Positions 2,334 to 37,394 of a DNA stretch of 46,513 nucleotides are shown here, in pieces; position 1 is the stretch's first letter, and each line of letters begins with the position of its first letter. The notes beneath the pieces are model-generated. The model was not told the origin of the DNA. It was given only the letters and a program-made list of their open reading frames with translations, and searched no databases. The DNA is taken from IMG/VR virus record IMGVR_UViG_2718218361_000005; one strand, 5' to 3'. Origin of the DNA: a virus. Taxonomy: Duplodnaviria; Heunggongvirae; Uroviricota; Caudoviricetes. Made by a program: the position numbers and the translations under genes.

Positions 2334-2918
2334 TTACTCCCTGACAGGGTTCGTAGGCCACTCAATATCAGGTGCAGTTGATGTATCAACACGGTTCAGC
2401 AACACCCGATACTTTTTCCAGGCTTCCAGCAATGAGGTTTCTTCCTCCGTTGCGATTTCCAGATCTACAGCATCCTGAAGTGGCGCAATATGCTCACTGG
2501 CTACCTGCATCAGGCTGTTTTTTGTTTCTTCCGCCTCCCGGATCCGGAACAGTTTTTCTGCTTCTGCATCTTTCACCCAGGCTGTGCCGTTCCACTTCTG
2601 ATATTCCCCTCCCGGCGATAACCAGGTAACATTTTCCGGTAACGGACCGAGTTCAGAAATAAATAACGCGTCGCCGGAAGCCACGTCATAAACCGTTTTA
2701 CCCCGATGATCTTCAACGAGATGCCACGATGCCTCATCACTGTTGAAAACAGCCACGAAGCCTGCCGGAATATCTGGCGGTGCAATATCGGTACTGTTTG
2801 CTGGCAGACCTGTATGAGGCGGAATATATGCATCACCTTCACCAATAAATTCATTAGTTCCGGCCAGCAGATTATAAATTTTTATGGTCCGTGGTTGTTC
2901 ACTCATTCTGAATGCCAT
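2334..2918 (-). CDS. tfa: Tail fiber assembly protein Tfa (194 aa)
   Basis: Length and sequence match lambda Tfa; start overlaps the stf stop. Confidence 0.9.
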
Positions 2919-31290: not shown

Positions 31291-31453
31291 GATTCCTCCT
31301 TGCTGCCAGTCGCAACCATTTTTTATCAACCAGGCTGGCGGTATATCCGAGCAGTGTTGGTATTTCGGATGGTTTCAGCTCAGGCTTACGCTTACGACGA
31401 TTTGGTACTCTGTAGATGTGTCCGTTCATGACACGAATAAGCGGTGTAGCCAT
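31283..31453 (-). CDS. ninE: NinE (56 aa)
   Basis: Hand translation [56 protein letters not shown]; ATG overlaps the ybcN stop. Confidence 0.8.
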   Translation of the reverse strand: MATPLIRVMNGHIYRVPNRRKRKPELKPSEIPTLLGYTASLVDKKWLRLAARRNHG

Positions 31454-31908
31454 TACGCCTCCTGCTTGTCGCGCAGCAGCTGGAACTCGCAGCTCTGCGG
31501 AATAGTCAGGTGGCAGCCAATATTCACCGCCCAGGCTTCAACCTTACACAGGAAGACATACATCTCTCCGGTATCGAGATCGGAGGTATGACGTAATGAC
31601 TGAATGGTGGTGATTTCACCGGTTACGACATCAACCAGTTCTTTGGTTTCATAACCGAGATAAGTGTGTTTGAGAGCATCTTTTACCCAAGCTGGAGTGG
31701 CGAACGTTTTACCCCTGCTGATGAGGTATTCACTGATTTCGCTGTACCACATGTGGCTGAGTGCATTCTGGGAAAGACTGCGTCTCTCGCGCCATGGTTT
31801 AAGCACCATGCGAAAGCATTTGCCGTCCTCCAGATAAGGCTGGATCTGCCGACCGATAGCGGTGAAGTTACCGCGATGCAGTTTGATGCCATCTTGTGGG
31901 AAGTTCAC
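31453..31908 (-). CDS. ybcN: NinB/YbcN-like recombination protein (151 aa), GTG start
   Basis: GTG at 31906-31908 preceded by GGAGGTGA; product .[20 protein letters not shown]... Confidence 0.8.
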
Positions 31909-31946
31909 GCTTCACCTCCGCAGAGATCAAACGCTGGATGCAAGAT

Positions 31947-32036
31947 ATCGCAGGTGCATTTCTGCATCTGTGAATGGAGAAGAGAGTTTGGATTGTATGT
32001 GCGCATAAACGTCCCCGTTTAGCGCAGAAGTCACCG
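31947..32036. repeat. Left copy of a ~90-bp direct repeat (about 89% identical to 35605..35694), immediately upstream of ybcN
   Basis: Hand alignment: 80 of 90 positions identical, no indels; contains a conserved hairpin gcgc.taaacg-tc.c-cgttta-gcgc. Confidence 0.75.
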
Positions 32037-32145
32037 GAGTTGTTCAGGCTCCGATAGACTGGCCCCCTGAATCTCCAGACAACCAATATCACTTAAATAA
32101 GTGATAGTCTTAATACTAGTTTTTAGACTAGTCATTGGAGAGCAG

Positions 32146-32511
32146 ATGATTGATGTCTTAGGACCGGAGAAACGCAGACGGCGTACTACACAGGAAAAGA
32201 TCGCTATTGTTCAGCAGAGTTTTGAACCGGGAATGACGGTCTCCCTTGTTGCCCGGCAACACGGTGTGGCAGCCAGCCAGTTATTTCTCTGGCGCAAGCA
32301 ATACCAGGAGGGAAGTCTTACTGCTGTGGTCGCAGGAGAGCAGGTCGTTCCTGCCTCTGAACTTGCTGCTGCCATGAAGCAGATTAAAGAACTCCAGCGC
32401 CTGCTCGGCAAAAAAACGATGGAAAATGAACTCCTTAAAGAAGCCGTTGAATACGGGCGTGCAAAAAAGTGGATAGCGCACGCGCCCTTATTGCCCGGGG
32501 ATGGGGAGTAA
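32146..32511 (+). CDS. insC: IS2 transposase OrfA, InsC (121 aa)
   Basis: ATG at 32146 ([24 protein letters not shown]...), HTH, IS3-family orfA. Confidence 0.9.
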
Positions 32512-33374
32512 GCTTAGTCAGCCGTTGTCTCCGGGTGTCGCGTGCGCAGTTGCACGTAATTCTCAGACGAACCGATGACTGGAAAGATGGTCGCCGCAGC
32601 CGTCACTCAGATGATACGGATGTGCTTCTCCGTATACACCATGTTATCGGAGAGCTGCCCACGTATGGTTATCGTCGGGTATGGGCGCTGCTTCGCAGAC
32701 AGGCCGAACTTGATGGTATGCCTGCGATCAATGCCAAACGTATTTACCGGATCATGCGCCAGAATGCGCTGTTGCTTGAGCGAAAACCCGCTGTACCGCC
32801 ATCGAAACGGGCACATACCGGCAGAGTGGCTGTGAAAGAAAGTAATCAGCGATGGTGCTCTGACGGGTTCGAGTTCCGCTGTGATAACGGAGAAAAACTG
32901 CGAGTCACGTTCGCGCTGGACTGCTGTGACCGTGAGGCACTGCACTGGGCGGTCACTACGGGCGGCTTCAACAGTGAAACAGTACAGGACGTCATGCTGG
33001 GAGCGGTGGAACGCCGTTTCGGCAACGAGCTTCCGGCGTCTCCAGTAGAGTGGCTGACGGATAATGGTTCATGCTACCGGGCTAATGAAACACGGCAGTT
33101 TGCCCGGATGTTGGGGCTTGAACCGAAGAACACGGCGGTGCGGAGTCCGGAGAGTAACGGCATAGCAGAGAGCTTCGTGAAAACGATAAAGCGTGACTAC
33201 ATCAGTGTCATGCCCAAACCAGACGGGTTAACGGCAGCAAAGAACCTTGCAGAGGCATTCGAGCATTATAACGAATGGCATCCGCATAGTGCACTGGGTT
33301 ATCGCTCGCCACGGGAATATCTACGGCAGCAAGCCAGTAATGGGTTAAGTGATAACAGGTGTCTGGAAATATAG
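32469..33374 (+). CDS. insD: IS2 transposase OrfB, InsD (DDE integrase core); expressed as InsCD fusion by -1 frameshift
   Basis: 301-aa ORF overlapping the insC 3' end in the -1 frame; DDE transposase motifs. Confidence 0.9.
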
Positions 33375-33440
33375 GGGCAAATCCATCCGATGACATGATT
33401 ATGGCAAAATGATTATGTAAAATCAAAAGCCAAAAAACAA

Positions 33441-34370
33441 TTATGGTTTATTTTCTAGCTCTGATTTTTTGAAAGCTTCTATCAGACGATTAGCATCTTC
33501 TGTACCACCAGGAAGCACGTTTGATTTTTTAAGAATATACGGTGGGAACTTTGTTGTTAAATATTCATGCTTAAACCATCTACGAAACTCTGACAATGCA
33601 GAATCAGGATAGGCATTAATGATCTGAGGATTGGAACTTGCCTGAAGAAAATCTTCAGGGTAATAATGCTCACAGTCTACTCTTTCTCCAAATTCTGTTG
33701 CTAACCCCTTTGCTTTCCAGTGACGCGCCCAGCAAGAACCAACACTGCCATCAGGTACGGTATGCTGATTAATCGCTAATCCAGCATTGATGAGATCTAC
33801 CATCATACCTGCAATTTCATTAAATATAATGAAATACCCATCAGGTATGGTTCCCTTATCTTTTAATAAAGATACTCTGTCATGGTAATGCCTCCACGGG
33901 TCCTCCGGTTGATATTTTAGCGCCTCGTATATAAATGTCTTGAGGCCTTTTTTAGCAAGCTCTCTGTAAGATCTAATTGCAGTCTCACTTTCTGCTTGTT
34001 TTGCTTCAAAGGCATAGTATTCAAGTATAGCCATGCATACAACATCTGGATAAGCATGGTACTCAACACCATTTCGAATTATTGGTATATAAAGTTTTTC
34101 ATCTGTAAAACCTTCATTAAGAAGATATGTACCAATAAAAGTCATTCTTCCTTTTTTGAAAATACCGTTCTCAACAGATTGAGCCCACTCATCGGTAATT
34201 TCCTTGATTCGCAAACGCTGAACACCACAAACATTTGCCAACCCATTCTGAGTAAGGTACGGAATTCCGTTATCGAGTACCCCCATTTCTATACCGTTAA
34301 TGACAGCCTCTTGCTTAACATCTAAGTCTAAAGGTATGGATCTGAGGGAGGTAGTTCTCTGTTGTGCCAT
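33441..34370 (-). CDS. Hypothetical 309-aa protein with N-terminal KilA-N/Bro-N-like segment; AT-rich accessory gene
   Basis: ATG at 34368-34370 preceded by AGGA (track ORF starts at an upstream TTG); N-terminal segment AVINGIEMGVLDNGIPYLTQNGLANVCGV resembles the KilA-N/Bro-N DNA-binding pattern; no function assigned. Confidence 0.6.
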   Translation of the reverse strand: MAQQRTTSLRSIPLDLDVKQEAVINGIEMGVLDNGIPYLTQNGLANVCGVQRLRIKEITDEWAQSVENGIFKKGRMTFIGTYLLNEGFTDEKLYIPIIRNGVEYHAYPDVVCMAILEYYAFEAKQAESETAIRSYRELAKKGLKTFIYEALKYQPEDPWRHYHDRVSLLKDKGTIPDGYFIIFNEIAGMMVDLINAGLAINQHTVPDGSVGSCWARHWKAKGLATEFGERVDCEHYYPEDFLQASSNPQIINAYPDSALSEFRRWFKHEYLTTKFPPYILKKSNVLPGGTEDANRLIEAFKKSELENKP

Positions 34371-34574
34371 TTTTGATCCTATCAATTTGAATTAATTGAA
34401 AAAATTAGGTGTTCCCTATGCATTAGAACACTCATCATACTAACCCCACTCGTTTGTGAAAAAAACTAATTTCACAATCAGTTAACTCTCAAAATAACTG
34501 ATATTCATACTCTCGCTATCCCATATATAGACATCCTTGTTTTAATACAACACTCATGGCTGGCGGCTATACTC

Positions 34575-35177
34575 CTAACAGATTTGACGCAAATACGGCA
34601 ATACTCGACCCCACTTATCATCCTGCCACGGCTGAATTTTTATATGTGCCGTTTTTCTGGCAAGGATTTCGCGCGCCTTATGTAGTATCTGGGGATATTC
34701 TTGCTCGATAGAAGTAAAGCGACCGGCTTCGCGGTGCTCCGCAACCTGAAGAAGTGGAGTAACGTTCTGGCAGGCGGTTAACATCGTATCACTTGCTCGC
34801 CATAACCAAGCAAGTGTGCAAAGTTCGTTATCAGTGAATTGTTTTGTGATCGGGGATTGTTGAACTTCTCGATCGAGAATATCCAGAACCCAGCGGCGGA
34901 ACTCTTTGGCTACAGGAGTTCGTGCAAACATGGCGATCAAATGGGCTCCGCGAAGGCTAAATACTCGAGACTCCTGCATTCCACGAGGGGTGGTCACTTT
35001 GACCACCCTTGTCATCATATCTGTAAATTCATCTGAGTGACGAGAGTAAATGCGCTGAACTGCTTTATCGTCCGCATATTCCAGAGCTAAACCAACTTCA
35101 GTGGCAGTAAGCCAAATTCTGTTATTGTGGCAAATTGGGGTAAACGTCGTTTTGTGGAATGCTAATTGAGTAGTCAT
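34575..35177 (-). CDS. Bro-N domain protein, antirepressor-like (200 aa)
   Basis: ATG preceded by GAGGTGA; N-terminus FTPICHNNRIWLTATEVGLALEY...RVFSLRGAHLIAMFARTPVAKEFRRWVLDIL fits the Bro-N pattern. Confidence 0.6.
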   Translation of the reverse strand: MTTQLAFHKTTFTPICHNNRIWLTATEVGLALEYADDKAVQRIYSRHSDEFTDMMTRVVKVTTPRGMQESRVFSLRGAHLIAMFARTPVAKEFRRWVLDILDREVQQSPITKQFTDNELCTLAWLWRASDTMLTACQNVTPLLQVAEHREAGRFTSIEQEYPQILHKAREILARKTAHIKIQPWQDDKWGRVLPYLRQIC

Positions 35178-35331
35178 AGTATCACCTCATCAGGTTAACC
35201 ATCACCACCAACGACGCCAATCGACTGGTGGTGAACTGTGCAAGGTTGGCGTAACCGGCTACTCAAACCCGGCGCTCCCGAAGAAGCCCTCACACAGCCC
35301 ACCATAATTTGGGCGTAGCCGTGCTTAGCGC

Positions 35332-35354
35332 ATAAAAAAACCGCTTAACGCGGT
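35332..35354 (-). terminator. Intrinsic terminator downstream of the small hydrophobic ORF
   Basis: Minus-strand hairpin accgc-gttaa-gcggt followed by a T7 run. Confidence 0.6.
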
Positions 35355-35440
35355 ATGCGTTGAGTAGTATTCCGGGACGCCAATCCCGTGTGCCGATTTT
35401 GCGGCAACGCACAGAATATAGCGCCGGATAAATAATGTCG

Positions 35441-35536
35441 TCAACCCTTGCAAATGGGTGGTGCGATGATCACTACTACCACCATAATCGCTCCAACTGT
35501 TGCAACTACTTTAGGCCAAGACATCACGATTTCCAT
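35441..35536 (-). CDS. Candidate small hydrophobic peptide (31 aa)
   Basis: Hand translation MEIVMSWPKVVATVGAIMVVVVIIAPPICKG; AAGGTGA 2-3 nt upstream of the ATG; lies between the right repeat copy and a terminator; no homolog recalled. Confidence 0.3.
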   Translation of the reverse strand: MEIVMSWPKVVATVGAIMVVVVIIAPPICKG

Positions 35537-35604
35537 ATCACCTTTAGCCGCCAGACAAACAGAGACTCCCTGTTCTTGGCTGCCAAAAACACCGAATGCA
35601 AAAA

Positions 35605-35694
35605 ATCGCAGGTGTATTTCTGCATCTGTGGAGGGAGAATAGGATTTAGATTGTATGTGCGTATAAACGTCACCGTTTAGCGCAGAAGTTACCG
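35605..35694. repeat. Right copy of the ~90-bp direct repeat (see 31947..32036)
   Basis: Hand alignment with 31947..32036. Confidence 0.75.
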
Positions 35695-35772
35695 CCAAGT
35701 GTCAAGTCTGCGGTGACTTAATTAAACAGCATACTAAGTTATATAATACTAATATCATAAATGTTAATTATT

Positions 35773-36177
35773 TTAACCATTCATAATCGTGACCATTATT
35801 AAGTCACCAAATGCATTTATTATCGATGATATGATTATAATGATAACACCCCATAGAATATTCCTTGATACTGCACGACCTTTTTCAGAGGTTGAGGTGA
35901 CGCTCCCATCTTGTTGTACCGAACCAAAACTAAATGCTTCTCGCCTTGATAGGTAGATACCTTCTGCAAAAAGCGGAGAAAGAGTAAGCAATGTGCCAAT
36001 CATTATGCCTAAACATCCGAATCGGGGAAGAAGTGACCAATCATTTTCTATATATGCATATATGCAACCACATATCATTAGCACCAACCAGAAGGCAACC
36101 ATTAGCTTCTTGTTTGCAAGCCATTTTAAATAAGGATCAAGCAGATGTTTATCATCTTTGCTTATTTTCGTTGTCAT
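35773..36177 (-). CDS. Hypothetical integral membrane protein (134 aa, ~3 TM helices), AT-rich accessory gene
   Basis: ATG at 36175-36177 preceded by AGAGG; hydrophobic segments LMVAFWLVLMICGCIYAYI, FGCLGIMIGTLLTLSPLF, ILWGVIIIIISSIINAF. Confidence 0.6.
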   Translation of the reverse strand: MTTKISKDDKHLLDPYLKWLANKKLMVAFWLVLMICGCIYAYIENDWSLLPRFGCLGIMIGTLLTLSPLFAEGIYLSRREAFSFGSVQQDGSVTSTSEKGRAVSRNILWGVIIIIISSIINAFGDLIMVTIMNG

Positions 36178-36533
36178 ATAGCCTCTATTATTCAAAGTGT
36201 ATTATATCTTAACAATAAATAACTCAGATTTAAGTGAATGCTCGAGTTTAGCAATTCTTCCCCTCCTTCTATATTTTTGCTACCTACGGTATCCAATAGC
36301 TTACCTGATCTTACCCAGCCTCTTGCAAAATTGGTGACGAATCATAACCGGTTCGGATTACATCTAGTACTCTATATCAGTTAATTTATAAATAACTTCG
36401 CGTTGCTCTATGCAAATTAATACAATCAGTTCTTGCGTAAGTGCCTCCACCTGATCCAGTTATCGTCCTACCGCAATTGGGATTTTATGTGCACTGTATC
36501 CCAGTAAAAATTATGAATACATTATAGACAACA

Positions 36534-36579: not shown

Positions 36580-37074
36580 TTATTTCCAATTGCAAGACTG
36601 TGAAATTTTTTCCACAACCTTATCAATCTCAGACAAGTCAAACTCAACTACTTGCATAGTTGATCCATAAGGTTCAAACCCAAAAATAGCTTTTTTATGC
36701 TTAGCCAAGGTCTTTATAAATTGTATTGGTTGTGGAGCAAATGCAGAATCACCGCCTTCCCCACCTCCCCAAACACTCTTGATCGGCTTTCCGCCATCTA
36801 ACCGCACTGTAATTCTTGGGTTGTCCGACCCCATATAATCATTGAATGATAAATAGGCATCTGTTTTGTTATCACTACAACGCAACACCAGTGAAGTTGC
36901 ACGATCAGTACCTGCTTTGTTATATGAATCTGGTGATAAGTTAAGAGCCACAAAGTCAGTCTGGTCAGTCATTTTATTTATCTCAGACTTTGTTATCCAC
37001 GGCCCTAACTTCTCTACACCAGCATTTGCTGTAAACGAGGCACTTATGACAAAGGCTAAAATAAATTTTCTCAT
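36580..37074 (-). CDS. Hypothetical secreted/periplasmic protein (164 aa) with cleavable signal peptide, AT-rich accessory gene
   Basis: Strong SD AAGGAG; signal peptide MRKFILAFVISASFTANA; two Cys; no homolog recalled. Confidence 0.6.
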   Translation of the reverse strand: MRKFILAFVISASFTANAGVEKLGPWITKSEINKMTDQTDFVALNLSPDSYNKAGTDRATSLVLRCSDNKTDAYLSFNDYMGSDNPRITVRLDGGKPIKSVWGGGEGGDSAFAPQPIQFIKTLAKHKKAIFGFEPYGSTMQVVEFDLSEIDKVVEKISQSCNWK

Positions 37075-37220: not shown

Positions 37221-37394
37221 TTAAACAAACGTTCGCCAGACCTTACCATCAATGACTAAGATTCCTGCCCGCGCCATTTTAGCCGCAGCCTGATTTATGC
37301 TGGTTACTGTCACACCTGTTACCGCAGCAACGTCCTGCGCACAGAAGTTCTTATGAGTCCCCAGGTAATGAATAATTGCCTCTTTGCCCGTCAT
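37221..37394 (-). CDS. ren: Ren-like protein, C-terminally shortened (57 aa versus ~96 aa in lambda)
   Basis: Hand translation MTGKEAIIHYLGTHKNFCAQDVAAVTGVTVTSINQAAAKMARAGILVIDGKVWRTFV; start overlaps the P stop as in lambda; AT-rich sequence follows the stop. Confidence 0.7.
   Translation of the reverse strand: MTGKEAIIHYLGTHKNFCAQDVAAVTGVTVTSINQAAAKMARAGILVIDGKVWRTFV

Follow-up and report, generated by a model that had tools for sequence, protein, structure and literature searches.

A conserved leader RNA predicted at two direct repeats heading different operons of a phage genome

Organization of the repeat pair and the two operons

The window is the whole 46,513-nt stretch of IMG/VR record IMGVR_UViG_2718218361_000005 (Caudoviricetes); the phage in it is a lambda-like prophage whose coding strand is the minus strand, and every phage gene of this region lies on that strand. 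The gap-free alignment of 31947-32036 with 35605-35694 reported in the original prediction (80 of 90 positions) was reproduced, and a repeat search lengthens the pair to 108 nt (31929-32036 and 35587-35694, 86%; identity 93/108), the longest perfect-match stretch between both repeats being 17 nt. A profile HMM built from homologues gives exactly two matches in the window, each of them to the minus strand: the left copy at 32055-31936 (E 6e-30), which IS2 cuts at model position 6, and the right copy at 35718-35594 (nhmmer E 1e-25). As originally placed, the left copy is 5' of ybcN and the right copy is 5' of a 31-codon hydrophobic ORF. The left copy and its surroundings contain the following features:

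33398..33426 (-): sigma-70-like promoter from a promoter scan, TTGATT, 17-nt spacer and CATAAT, with TG before the -10
32055..33385 (+): IS2, 1331 bp, in the 5' arm of HP1
32030..32054 (-): HP1, 3' arm, loop CCUGAACAA and proximal portion of the 5' arm
32001..32025 (-): HP-SD, GCGCUAAACG-GGGA-CGUUUA(U)GCGC, -12.1 kcal/mol
31905..32006 (-): ylcH leader ORF, annotated, 33 codons, its stop overlapping the ybcN GTG start (GTGA)
31949..31972 (-): HP2, sense CACAGAUGCA-GAAA-UGCACCUGCG, in which two A·C mismatches are conserved
31941..31948 (-): U-rich tract following HP2: AUAUCUUG in this genome, AUUUUCUG in most homologues
31907..31934 (-): HP4, outside the repeat, hiding the start codon of ybcN and its Shine-Dalgarno, GGAGG; -14.2 kcal/mol
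31453..31908 (-): ybcN, first gene of the ybcN-ninE-ybcO-rusA operon under the left copy, which ends in Q

The left promoter is the site annotated as putative -35/-10 in the phage 82 record X92588, where HP1 is annotated as a 'possible regulator-binding site'. IS2 shows inverted ends and a target duplication, TCCGA, at 32050-32054 and 33386-33390 (read from the sequence), and strain S21 has an annotated IS3-family transposase. It splits the left HP1 and cuts the left leader off from the promoter at 33426-33398; the final 4 nt of the 5' arm are beyond it, at 33391-33394, and HP1 rebuilt without IS2 reads GTCATCGGAG-CCTGAACAA-CTCCGGTGAC. HP-SD, the 'IR4' of phi80, contains a Shine-Dalgarno-like GGGA in its loop and the ylcH AUG (32006-32004) in its 3' arm, and the left repeat copy holds the first 20 codons of ylcH. 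HP2 is the 10-bp tetraloop hairpin of the original prediction, confirmed here at 31949-31972 and 35607-35630, with a C-G to U-G difference between copies as described for the plus strand.

The right copy and the cassette downstream of it contain the following features:

35594..35718 (-): right leader copy, from nhmmer and alignments
35441..35536 (-): hydrophobic ORF, 31 codons, MEIVMSWPKVVATVGAIMVVVVIIAPPICKG, immediately 3' of the right copy
35224..35444 (-): P1-immI-like RNA module, with a promoter-like site at 35444-35415 (promoter scan), isrK / c4-a1b1 at 35421-35334 and C4 antisense RNA at 35309-35224
34575..35177 (-): Bro-N / P22AR_C antirepressor-type gene (Pfam PF02498 and PF10548)
33441..34385 (-): last cassette gene, 314 aa if begun at TTG and 309 aa in the S21 annotation

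In the right copy, HP1 (35717-35688, minus strand) shows an altered loop, HP-SD (35683-35659, minus strand) has the loop GUGA and the start ATG changed to ATA, and HP2 (35630-35607, minus strand; plus-strand fold -11.3 kcal/mol) has one additional mismatch on the sense strand and is followed by the U-tract AUUUUUUG (35606-35599, minus strand). No recognisable promoter was found in the upstream sequence inspected, and the right copy, judged from its sequence, has lost several consensus features. It shows 99.4% identity with phage IdasGreatGrand. Complete second copies with a promoter precede the isrK/antirepressor cassette in PhiR26_1 and in IMG/VR contigs. The hydrophobic ORF comes after 41 of the 43 R-type copies retrieved and is kept, with its own Shine-Dalgarno, in PhiR26_1 and L037; neither this ORF nor the last cassette gene, whose slot differs among two-copy loci, matches Pfam. 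The RNA module matches Rfam families RF01394 (60.7 bits) and RF01695 (72.7 bits) above gathering, and RF03163 (40.6 bits) below gathering. The supposed terminator that separates the small ORF from the Bro-N gene is this pair of isrK and C4 antisense RNA, an arrangement also known from P1 immI.

Distribution and conserved geometry

Homologues are located 5' of ybcN-type genes in phage 82, phi80, HK639 and DLP12, and in prophages of Citrobacter, Siccibacter, Enterobacter and Phytobacter. The element was found in 4251 of 5426 complete E. coli genomes and persists in prophage remnants without ybcN. Structure and covariation were evaluated on 124 distinct homologues, promoters on 109 distinct upstream regions, leader-ORF geometry on 145 homologues and HP4 on 51 distinct variants. 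The promoter motif TTGAnn-17-nATAmT is present in 86 of the 109 upstream regions, with a spacer of exactly 17 nt in 84, and this sigma-70-type promoter is often overlapped by a TTGAT-N8-ATCAA palindrome. Since the -10 element ends just 3-4 nt 5' of HP1 and the outer HP1 pairs co-vary, at least some functional RNA must begin at the base of the hairpin or upstream of it.

The leader ORF is kept open over 29-33 codons, and its stop overlaps the ybcN start as (A/G)TGA in 143 of the 145 homologues; in 122 of these 143 the leader ATG is 9 nt past the start of the GGGA loop. The leader peptide varies wherever the stems co-vary. The spacer between HP-SD and HP2 contains 6.5% G and 37% C and is entirely unlike between 82-type and phi80-type variants, and the 8 nt following HP2 contain a mean of 5 U among the 124 homologues. 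In 50 of the 51 variants the minimum-energy fold pairs the ybcN Shine-Dalgarno, and the variants use three different stem families.

RNA structure and covariation

The repeat contains three RNA hairpins (HP1, HP-SD and HP2) with abundant compensatory changes, which bears out the structured-RNA part of the original prediction, together with the covariance across homologues proposed as its check. Double changes occur in 25 of 30 pairs. Of all cells, 91.6% are paired; shuffling the columns lowers this to 66.7%, with none of 300 shuffles as high as the real alignment, and sliding the partners lowers it to 26-34%. HP1 shows ten co-varying pairs and the loop UGAAC in nearly all variants. HP-SD shows 99.5% of cells paired, swaps at 10/10 pairs and the loop GGGA in 123 of 124 homologues. 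RNAalifold on a plain (unfitted) MAFFT alignment recovers HP2, with compensatory changes in 7 of its 9 pairs, and both HP2 and its loop stay conserved at positions where a change would be synonymous.

The pair had been interpreted as a module boundary flanking a cassette exchanged by recombination. The bracketing itself holds: there are 97 unrelated upstream flanks among 210 homologous loci, as at a mosaic junction, and the two-copy layout with a like cassette between the copies is present in 31/31 informative R-type loci. IS2, counted as cargo in that interpretation, is a later insertion into the left copy. That the repeat is a mere linker aiding cassette exchange by homologous recombination, with incidental hairpins, is highly improbable in spite of these contexts. 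A neutral patch of homology would not be expected to show compensatory double substitutions and loop conservation, nor a promoter and an ORF of fixed geometry; the repeat is not merely a recombination scar, and as a sole explanation the linker is contradicted by the covariation. Homologous recombination needs a minimum run of identical bases, and because identity between the copies of the window never exceeds 17 bases in a row, recombination between them should be inefficient.

Functional strand

The original prediction placed the structure on the plus strand. Counted on a structural alignment whose bulges were placed by sense-strand folding, and which is thus slightly biased toward the sense strand, G·U cells on the minus strand outnumber A·C cells by 175 to 25 in HP1 and by 19 to three in HP-SD. 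In these two hairpins out of three, the minus strand holds many more G·U pairs than the plus strand, and on this pairing evidence it is the minus, phage-sense strand that forms the functional RNA. There, the right copy's C-to-T change in the HP2 stem breaks a pair rather than keeping it. The argument against a conserved protein drawn from plus-strand ORFs was likewise made on the wrong strand and is irrelevant, since the phage genes here all use the minus strand, on which the ORF is open and ends on the ybcN start.

The first proposal, that function lies with a plus-strand RNA (antisense to the genes of the phage) or with a hairpin or operator in the DNA, has little probability. HP2 does fit it better, being perfect only on the plus strand (-13.3 kcal/mol versus -7.3 on the sense strand; 98% of cells paired versus 80%), where the sense A·C mismatches become G·U; in addition, 3/3 right-copy stem changes yield G·U on that strand, and the phage 82 label of HP1 suits a regulator-binding site. 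Against it, the 175 minus-strand G·U cells of HP1 become C·A mismatches on the plus strand or break DNA symmetry, and the pattern expected of an operator is reversed, with a conserved centre and variable arms. Moreover, the U tract 3' of HP2 is present on the minus strand only, a scan gave no terminator-like tail on any plus-strand hairpin, and the alternative HP2 stems of L012, L110 and L217 carry G·U on the minus strand and are mismatched at stem position 2 on both strands. The RNA 3' end mapped in K-12 is also on the sense strand.

In the Term-seq data of E. coli K-12 this 3' end, on the plus strand (sense there), lies 5-6 nt past HP1 (PMC7815308, supplementary files 1 and 3), and it survived a filter that required a mapped transcription start at most 200 nt upstream; these tables contain no 3' end at HP2 (PMC7815308). 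Since many variants lack a U-rich sequence after HP1, the mapped end may be a processing product.

Proposed function

On the sequence evidence, the repeats are more than a neutral linker: both are copies of one conserved leader, promoter-proximal and read on the minus strand, and they head different operons: ybcN-ninE-ybcO-rusA-Q, and the cassette formed by the hydrophobic ORF, isrK, C4 and the antirepressor. The full unit consists of the promoter, HP1 with its UGAAC loop, HP-SD with the GGGA loop and the AUG in the stem, the C-rich and G-poor spacer, and HP2 with the U-rich tract, with HP4 outside; ylcH (about 31 codons) extends from HP-SD across HP2 and HP4 to a stop codon that overlaps the first gene's start. 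Its most likely role, which we favour at somewhat better than even odds, is that of a cis-acting leader coupling downstream expression to leader translation. Ribosomes on the leader ORF would open HP4, and the first gene would then be translated by coupling; they would also shield the G-poor spacer and HP2, and premature Rho-dependent or intrinsic termination would be avoided. With the leader untranslated, transcription would stop early and only a short leader RNA would build up. If the gate works in this manner, Q and the antirepressor would stay silent in the lysogen. Against this coupling stand the predicted weakness of HP2 as a sense-strand hairpin (-7.3 kcal/mol, two A·C mismatches), the lack of a 3' end at HP2 in the K-12 Term-seq tables and the closeness of the -10 element to the co-varying outer pairs of HP1; the model also leaves the conservation of the UGAAC and GGGA loops unaccounted for.

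An unlikely alternative is that the unit encodes a small RNA, some 115 nt long, that acts in trans, is constitutive in lysogens and regulates host or phage mRNAs. It would extend from the promoter through HP1, HP-SD and the spacer, serving as seed, to HP2 and the U tail, serving as terminator and Hfq site, and the ORF would be secondary. The parts of the unit would suit this: the promoter is followed by a 5' hairpin, an unstructured spacer rich in pyrimidines (CUCUCUUCUCCC) with complementarity to Shine-Dalgarno-like sequences, and a U-tailed terminal hairpin. The freezing of HP2 and its loop at synonymous sites and the survival of the element in remnants without ybcN also agree with it. However, the complete difference of the spacer between the 82-type and phi80-type variants means that there is no conserved seed; the stop-start overlap and the Shine-Dalgarno-hiding HP4 favour a function in cis, and K-12 Term-seq lacks a 3' end at HP2. 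Neither an Rfam family nor a paper describing the leader RNA was found, which also weighs against such a small RNA, and the leader appears undescribed as a family. Rather doubtful, too, is an antitermination or insulation RNA, either self-acting or bound at HP1 and HP-SD by RNA polymerase or a factor of the phage or host, which by analogy with nut/boxB or HK022 put would decide whether transcripts that enter or start at the nin operon read through to Q. Such an RNA would explain the conserved loops on variable stems, the two or three tandem hairpins of the same loop type in variants L107, L213 and L219, and the position between a promoter and an operon ending in Q, and part of the loop is similar to lambda boxB, CCUGAA. 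But the boxB architecture (5-bp stem, GNRA-like pentaloop) and boxA are absent, the element occurs in phages of differing antitermination systems, including the N-less HK639, and shows no sequence similarity to the annotated HK639 putL-like RNA; in addition, rusA 3' of the DLP12 copy is reported (Mahdi et al. 1996) to be silent.

It is improbable that the conserved object is the small protein YlcH and that nucleotide conservation follows from peptide selection, even though the CDS is annotated in K-12 and many genomes, the reading frame stays open between a start and a stop of fixed position, and one 13-residue segment is kept in most variants. The left and right copies differ at eight nt within 20 codons, seven of which change the amino acid; compensatory stem changes alter the peptide (QMQKC to QMLKS), an entire alternative segment, PSVSFDAEG, is found as well, synonymous sites within HP2 are frozen, and YlcH has no Pfam family.

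Comparison with known systems

The ylcH leader resembles leader-ORF attenuators (pyrBI pyrL, tnaC, mdtU/speFL-type) in the short ORF right before the first gene, the hairpin with a U-rich tract, the G-poor, C-rich stretch within the ORF, and the location of the next gene's Shine-Dalgarno in a helix that leader ribosomes must cross. It differs in lacking regulatory codon runs and a covariation-backed alternative antiterminator helix, and in having two additional 5' hairpins with conserved loops; its HP2 terminator is putative. The position of the element, after P/ren and cargo genes and before the nin genes and Q, is that of the lambda nin terminators tR2-tR4, and in K-12 an RNA 3' end accompanies a hairpin at that place; a like role is plausible, with Q silent unless transcription is antiterminated. 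Unlike tR2-tR4, it has its own promoter and leader ORF, HP1 lacks a general U tract, HP2 is imperfect, and there is no sequence similarity to lambda.

The element has already been annotated in parts, in records X92588 (phage 82 orf33) and JX871397 (phi80 'IR4') and as K-12 ylcH. Each entry notes one part, whether as a feature of the DNA or as a hypothetical CDS: HP1 is the repeat region of phage 82, HP-SD is IR4, and orf33/ylcH is the leader ORF. Its unity as one structured RNA, the covariation and its reuse before an antirepressor cassette are in none of those records. With lambda nut (boxA/boxB) and HK022/HK639 put, the element shares promoter-proximal phage hairpins with conserved loops and non-conserved stems, upstream of an operon that must pass terminators; it differs in the missing boxA and 5-bp stem with pentaloop, in its dissimilarity to the HK639 putL-like RNA, and in being present whatever the antitermination type of the phage. 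In P1/P7 immI and Salmonella Gifsy-1 isrK, C4/IsrK RNAs control an antirepressor, and the right copy is directly 5' of such a module. The repeat matches none of the C4, c4-a1b1 and isrK models, and is an extra upstream leader shared with the unrelated ybcN operon.

Organization of the two repeats

The two repeats belong to a conserved leader (the element) that contains a promoter, four co-varying hairpins and a leader ORF, and is reused before two operons. Three hairpins, HP1, HP-SD and HP2, are inside the repeat and the fourth, HP4, is downstream. Positions 31947-32036 (left copy) and 35605-35694 (right copy) align without gaps, 80 of 90 being identical, and both carry HP2 (31949-31972 and 35607-35630), in agreement with the original prediction of direct repeats of about 90 bp with a hairpin. 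The pair extends to 108 nt (31929-32036 and 35587-35694), with 93 identical positions and a longest exact run of 17 nt. A profile HMM made from homologues elsewhere and searched with nhmmer shows exactly two matches in the 46.5-kb window, both on the minus strand, with E values of 6e-30 for the left copy and 1e-25 for the right one. The phage genes around them are all on the minus strand too, in this order:

minus strand, replication protein P
37221-37394, minus strand, truncated ren
36580-37074, minus strand, VasI/TagO-like periplasmic protein
35773-36195, minus strand, 140-aa membrane protein
35718-35594, minus strand, right copy (profile match)
35441-35536, minus strand, 31-codon hydrophobic ORF
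35224-35444, minus strand, RNA module with isrK and C4
minus strand, Bro-N/P22AR antirepressor-type gene
minus strand, 314-aa gene
33426-33398, minus strand, promoter-like site
32055-33385, IS2, oriented opposite to the ybcN operon
32055-31936, minus strand, left copy (profile match)
32006-31905, minus strand, leader ORF (ylcH)
minus strand, ybcN, ninE, ybcO and rusA

The stretch with the left copy is identical to E. coli strain S21, whose annotated gene order agrees. In S21 and in DLP12 of K-12 a 33-codon hypothetical gene is annotated over the left copy (ylcH in K-12, orf33 in phage 82), and its stop codon overlaps the ybcN start. IS2 shows a target duplication, TCCGA. Because its removal joins the left repeat to 40 nt more, including the promoter-like site, IS2 is inside the left element and not, as first thought, among the content between the repeats.

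Upstream of the right copy, ren is cut to 57 codons and is annotated in S21 as frameshifted, with an internal stop. The slot between ren and the right copy contains two genes, one encoding a signal-peptide protein with a near-threshold match to VasI/TagO (type VI secretion-associated) and the other, the 140-aa membrane protein. The equivalent slot of other phages shows unrelated content, such as a PD-lambda-1 defence gene in PhiR26_1 and emrE-ybcL-ybcM in DLP12.

Distribution of the element

Homologues were collected from the regions upstream of ybcN-type genes, in one genome per species and in IMG/VR viral contigs, with YbcN of the window and two divergent homologues as queries. Together with the annotated phages 82, phi80, HK639, PhiR26_1 and IdasGreatGrand, the set contains 124 distinct versions of the element. 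In the genome-collection scan the element is upstream of ybcN homologues of Escherichia, Citrobacter, Siccibacter, Enterobacter and Phytobacter, and is absent upstream of those retrieved from Pantoea and Rosenbergiella; it is also absent upstream of the most distant viral-contig homologues (at most 57% identical). Among complete E. coli genomes, 4251 of 5426 (about 78%, including K-12) contain it, at up to four sites per genome. About 1300 E. coli genomes show a remnant emrE-ybcL-ybcM-element, such as that of strain XH990 near fliE/yedK, with an element copy of about 83% identity, no ybcN after it and an adjoining IS200/IS605; decayed prophage fragments thus keep the element.

Promoter and hairpins

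Upstream of the hairpins, 86 of 109 distinct regions show the motif TTGAnn, a 17-nt spacer and nATAmT (TTGATT or TTGATA with CATAAT, and similar), and the promoter scan match in the window is the promoter-like site beyond IS2. As expected of a sigma-70 promoter, whose hexamers are 17±1 nt apart, the hexamers are conserved and the spacer is otherwise variable. In 75 of the 109 contexts a palindrome, TTGAT-N8-ATCA(A), overlaps the -35 and the spacer (for instance, positions 50-67 of locus L003, and 33426-33409, minus strand, in the window). Its centre is variable, and it looks like the operator of a dimeric regulator; FNR sites differ in having N4 spacing.

Plain MAFFT misaligned HP1 and HP-SD, which vary in length, and RNAalifold on that alignment gave only HP2, recovered independently; seven of the nine HP2 pairs in it show compensatory changes. 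For this reason an anchor-based structural alignment was made by script. Standard pairs occupy 91.6% of its cells (pair by sequence entries), compared with 66.7% in column shuffles, none of 300 of which reaches the observed value, and with 26-34% when partners are slid. Changes on both sides are found in 25 of the 30 pairs across the 124 versions, which upholds the proposal of a structured RNA conserved among homologues.

HP1 contains ten pairs, none of them invariant, and in nine both partners change; its 5' arm reads, for example, GTCACCGGAG, GGGTTGTCAG, TCTGCCAG or GATACGGATAG, and the loop core UGAAC is conserved. In three viral contigs (L107, L213 and L219), upstream of ybcN, two to three tandem short hairpins with (C)UGAACA-type loops replace the single HP1, an arrangement that suggests the loop to be a repeated recognition unit. 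A base-pairing target of the HP1 loop was sought with TTGTTCAGG at one mismatch; the 20 matches (11.25 ± 3.33 expected, largest shuffle 20) include none that is meaningfully placed, and the candidate was rejected. HP-SD also contains ten pairs, almost all Watson-Crick, with wholesale swaps between stem families; 123 of the 124 versions have GGGA as its loop, and the leader ATG, in its 3' arm, comes 9 nt after the loop begins. The leader spacer, 23-30 nt long, is poor in G (6.5%) and contains 37% C, and HP2 is followed by a U-rich tract (mean of 5 U per 8 nt). The ybcN Shine-Dalgarno is paired within HP4 in 50 of the 51 distinct variants; these represent three stem families, and the mean is -15 kcal/mol.

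Neither copy belongs to an Rfam 15 family according to cmscan, run on the window at gathering thresholds and on 31500-36300 at E up to 5; the only matches in the latter region are the neighbouring isrK, C4 and c4-a1b1. In another part of the window, 2377-2575 (minus strand) is a full-length match to the family IS009 (RF02111, 229.5 bits).

Strand of the RNA

The RNA is on the minus strand of the window, as judged from its pairing pattern, since in HP1 a G·U pair on that (sense) strand is found in 175 cells and A·C, the counterpart of an opposite-strand G·U, in 25; since HP-SD shows 19 and 3 cells, respectively; since several HP1 variants contain three to five sense-strand G·U pairs; and since the U tract after HP2 exists only on the sense strand. 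On the G·U and A·C counts the plus-strand reading of the original prediction was rejected for HP1 and HP-SD, and survives only as an unexplained trait of HP2. HP2 is the exception because at two of its positions 119 and 121 of the 124 sequences have A·C, so that its pairing is more complete on the plus strand (98% of cells and -13.3 kcal/mol) than on the sense strand (80% and -7.3 kcal/mol). Synonymous changes in the ylcH frame that would mend one mismatch (TCA to TCG, or TGC to TGT) are not seen in the 124 sequences, the GAAA loop and neighbouring synonymous sites are also frozen, and the alternative HP2 stems of Phytobacter and two viral contigs retain the mismatch at the second stem position. 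We read the A·C mismatches as a conserved imperfection of the sense-strand hairpin, the reason for which is unexplained.

As a candidate intrinsic terminator, HP2 has the U tract, but its sense-strand hairpin is weak (-7.3 kcal/mol) and has mismatches at stem positions 2 and 6; the terminator scan flags the right copy with an alternative 5-bp stem. HP1 was rejected as a canonical intrinsic terminator, the sequence after it not being U-rich in many variants. The minimum-energy fold shows an alternative HP2 pairing, of GAUGCA with UGCAUC. This pairing is downstream of the U tract and has no covariation support, changes at the loop-closing pair of HP2 leaving it mismatched, and it was also rejected.

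The leader ORF

Of 145 homologues, 143 begin ybcN with ATGA or GTGA, so that the leader frame stops on this start. The leader ORF has 29-33 codons in nearly all of the 145, and an identical start position in HP-SD in 122. This overlap, together with the paired ybcN Shine-Dalgarno, is the arrangement of translational coupling, and a short predicted ORF upstream of an operon is also that of an attenuator. Regulatory codon runs were not found in the leader ORF, the peptide shows no conservation apart from that of the RNA, and no mutually exclusive terminator and antiterminator helices are supported, GAUGCA with UGCAUC being the sole alternative.

A functional YlcH peptide is contradicted by at least one direct test, as its sequence changes alongside compensatory stem substitutions (QMQKC to QMLKS). 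Variants with a different HP2 encode a replacement segment, PSVSFDAEG, and the two copies of the window show 8 nt differences in 20 codons, seven of which change the amino acid. YlcH as a small-protein family was rejected on these grounds, and the pattern points to an ORF whose translation, not its product, matters. The other minus-strand frame, which in R-type copies (described below) fuses to the hydrophobic ORF, was discarded because it encodes wholly different peptides in 82-type and phi80-type HP-SD stems.

The antirepressor cassette and its leader copy

In PhiR26_1 and several viral contigs the upstream copy is complete, with promoter, three hairpins, ATG and U tract, and is followed by the hydrophobic ORF, isrK, C4, the antirepressor gene, a second copy and ybcN. 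The junction scan found 43 upstream copies of this type (R-type), and all 31 in which a second copy is findable show the two-copy layout, with 1.44-2.46 kb between copies; the spacing in the window fits once IS2 is subtracted. The 250-nt upstream flanks form 97 unrelated clusters among 210 loci, and the downstream neighbour is of two kinds, ybcN or the hydrophobic ORF, as at the mosaic junctions of lambdoid modules. The suggestion of a cassette between repeats at a module boundary thus holds, except that both repeats are 5' control regions of operons, one of them belonging to the cassette itself.

The right copy of the window is diverged: it has no recognisable promoter, its HP1 loop lacks UGAAC, the HP-SD loop is GUGA, ATG is changed to ATA and HP2 contains one mismatch more. 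The phage record IdasGreatGrand has a copy with 99.4% identity to it, and the changes are therefore also present in a sequenced phage.

The RNA module downstream is of the P1-immI/Gifsy-1 type, here in the nin region of a lambdoid prophage, and contains a promoter-like site, isrK/c4-a1b1 and the C4 antisense RNA directly upstream of the Bro-N/P22AR antirepressor gene. The strongly hydrophobic ORF, MEIVMSWPKVVATVGAIMVVVVIIAPPICKG, has its own Shine-Dalgarno and shows no Pfam match; 41 of the 43 R-type loci conserve it in the interval from the leader copy to isrK. Its stop codon and the -35 of the isrK promoter overlap, and the product may be a small membrane toxin or an Icd-like factor.

RNA 3' ends in E. 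coli K-12

Term-seq of E. coli K-12 shows an RNA 3' end at 572349/572350 (+), with low read counts, in two growth conditions (PMC7815308). It is 19 nt upstream of the ylcH ATG, that is, 5-6 nt after HP1 (...CUCCGGUGACUUCUG), which shows that a sense-strand RNA with HP1 exists in K-12. The table that retains the entry covers 3' ends upstream of ORFs, and by its rule such an end needs a mapped transcription start no farther than 200 nt upstream and at a distance of over 20 nt (PMC7815308); this rule indirectly supports the activity of the leader promoter. The K-12 tables list no 3' end at HP2 (PMC7815308), so that these data do not support termination at HP2 in K-12; the test is a weak one, as expression there is low and the base and U tract of the K-12 HP2 are mutated.

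Mode of action and alternative explanations

We are inclined to regard the element as a cis-acting gate that couples translation of the leader to downstream expression, a model inferred as a whole. Translation of the leader ORF would open HP4, so that ybcN would be translated by coupling, and the leader ribosomes would cover the G-poor spacer and HP2, shielding the transcript from Rho-dependent or intrinsic termination. When the leader is not translated, only a short leader RNA would be made, and Q and the antirepressor would be silent in the lysogen. During lytic growth, antiterminated transcription from the early promoter would override the gate.

Other explanations were weighed against this one. 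A plain recombination linker is contradicted by at least one direct test, given the changes on both sides of most pairs, the promoter and the leader ORF. An RNA or DNA operator on the plus strand would account for the better pairing of HP2 there, and is in turn contradicted by the G·U excess of HP1 on the sense strand. Less probably than a cis-acting gate, the element could also be a trans-acting small RNA or a factor-dependent antitermination RNA. The gate model does not account for the conservation of the UGAAC and GGGA loops or for the frozen sequence of HP2, features that suggest an additional protein or RNA partner. A bolder and rather unlikely extension is an undescribed family of promoter-proximal, multi-hairpin phage regulatory RNAs, in which the loops that do not vary (UGAAC, and GGGA and GAAA of the GNRA type) would be read by a host or phage factor, or would dock mutually, deciding transcription and translation into the Q operon and the antirepressor cassette; this would be a second, repressor-independent checkpoint of prophage induction, which most lambdoid prophages of E. 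coli, perhaps Shiga-toxin phages among them, would share.

Comparison with known systems

Parts of the element are already recorded as isolated features: the phage 82 record shows a putative promoter, orf33 and, at HP1, a "possible regulator-binding site", "IR4" of the phi80 record is HP-SD, and ylcH of K-12 is the leader ORF. No account of the unit as an RNA was found in the literature on ylcH, ybcN and nin-region small RNAs, nor an Rfam family, and the feature is a real, widespread structured leader, apparently undescribed. Identity with PreS, which is in the lambda early-left operon, and with svsR, which is inside cI, was discarded. The nut consensus is a boxA followed by a boxB hairpin with a 5-bp stem and a GNRA-like pentaloop; in contrast, the stem of HP1 is 10 bp long and its loop 9 nt, with no boxA-like CGCUCUU(U)A nearby, and a lambda-type nut site was rejected. 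A put-type antiterminator RNA (HK022/HK639) was also rejected, as the putL-like RNA of HK639 (34187-34312) does not resemble the element by inspection; HK639 carries the element separately, before NinB. The unit works most like a leader-ORF attenuator or a translational-coupling leader, although it differs from classical attenuators in two defining properties, a supported alternative helix and regulatory codons, neither of which it shows.

The element is directly before the operon ending in the late-gene activator Q and, in a subset of phages, also before the antirepressor module, both of which are switches for prophage induction. In most lambdoid prophages of E. coli its place is at the entrance to Q and an antirepressor. 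Should it gate expression, it would contribute to an explanation of the silent rusA and Q of DLP12-type prophages, and would show how the cargo between ren and the nin genes is insulated and how the antirepressor cassette can be plugged in with its own copy of the control region. It is also a covariation-supported RNA motif missing from Rfam, and a reason to re-annotate the K-12 hypothetical gene ylcH as a leader ORF.

In the window, IS2 separates the leader from its promoter at exactly their boundary, ahead of ybcN-ninE-ybcO-rusA. In K-12, insertions of IS2 and IS10 upstream of rusA are the classical rus suppressor mutations, and for this reason the natural IS2 insertion may alter the expression of rusA and Q.
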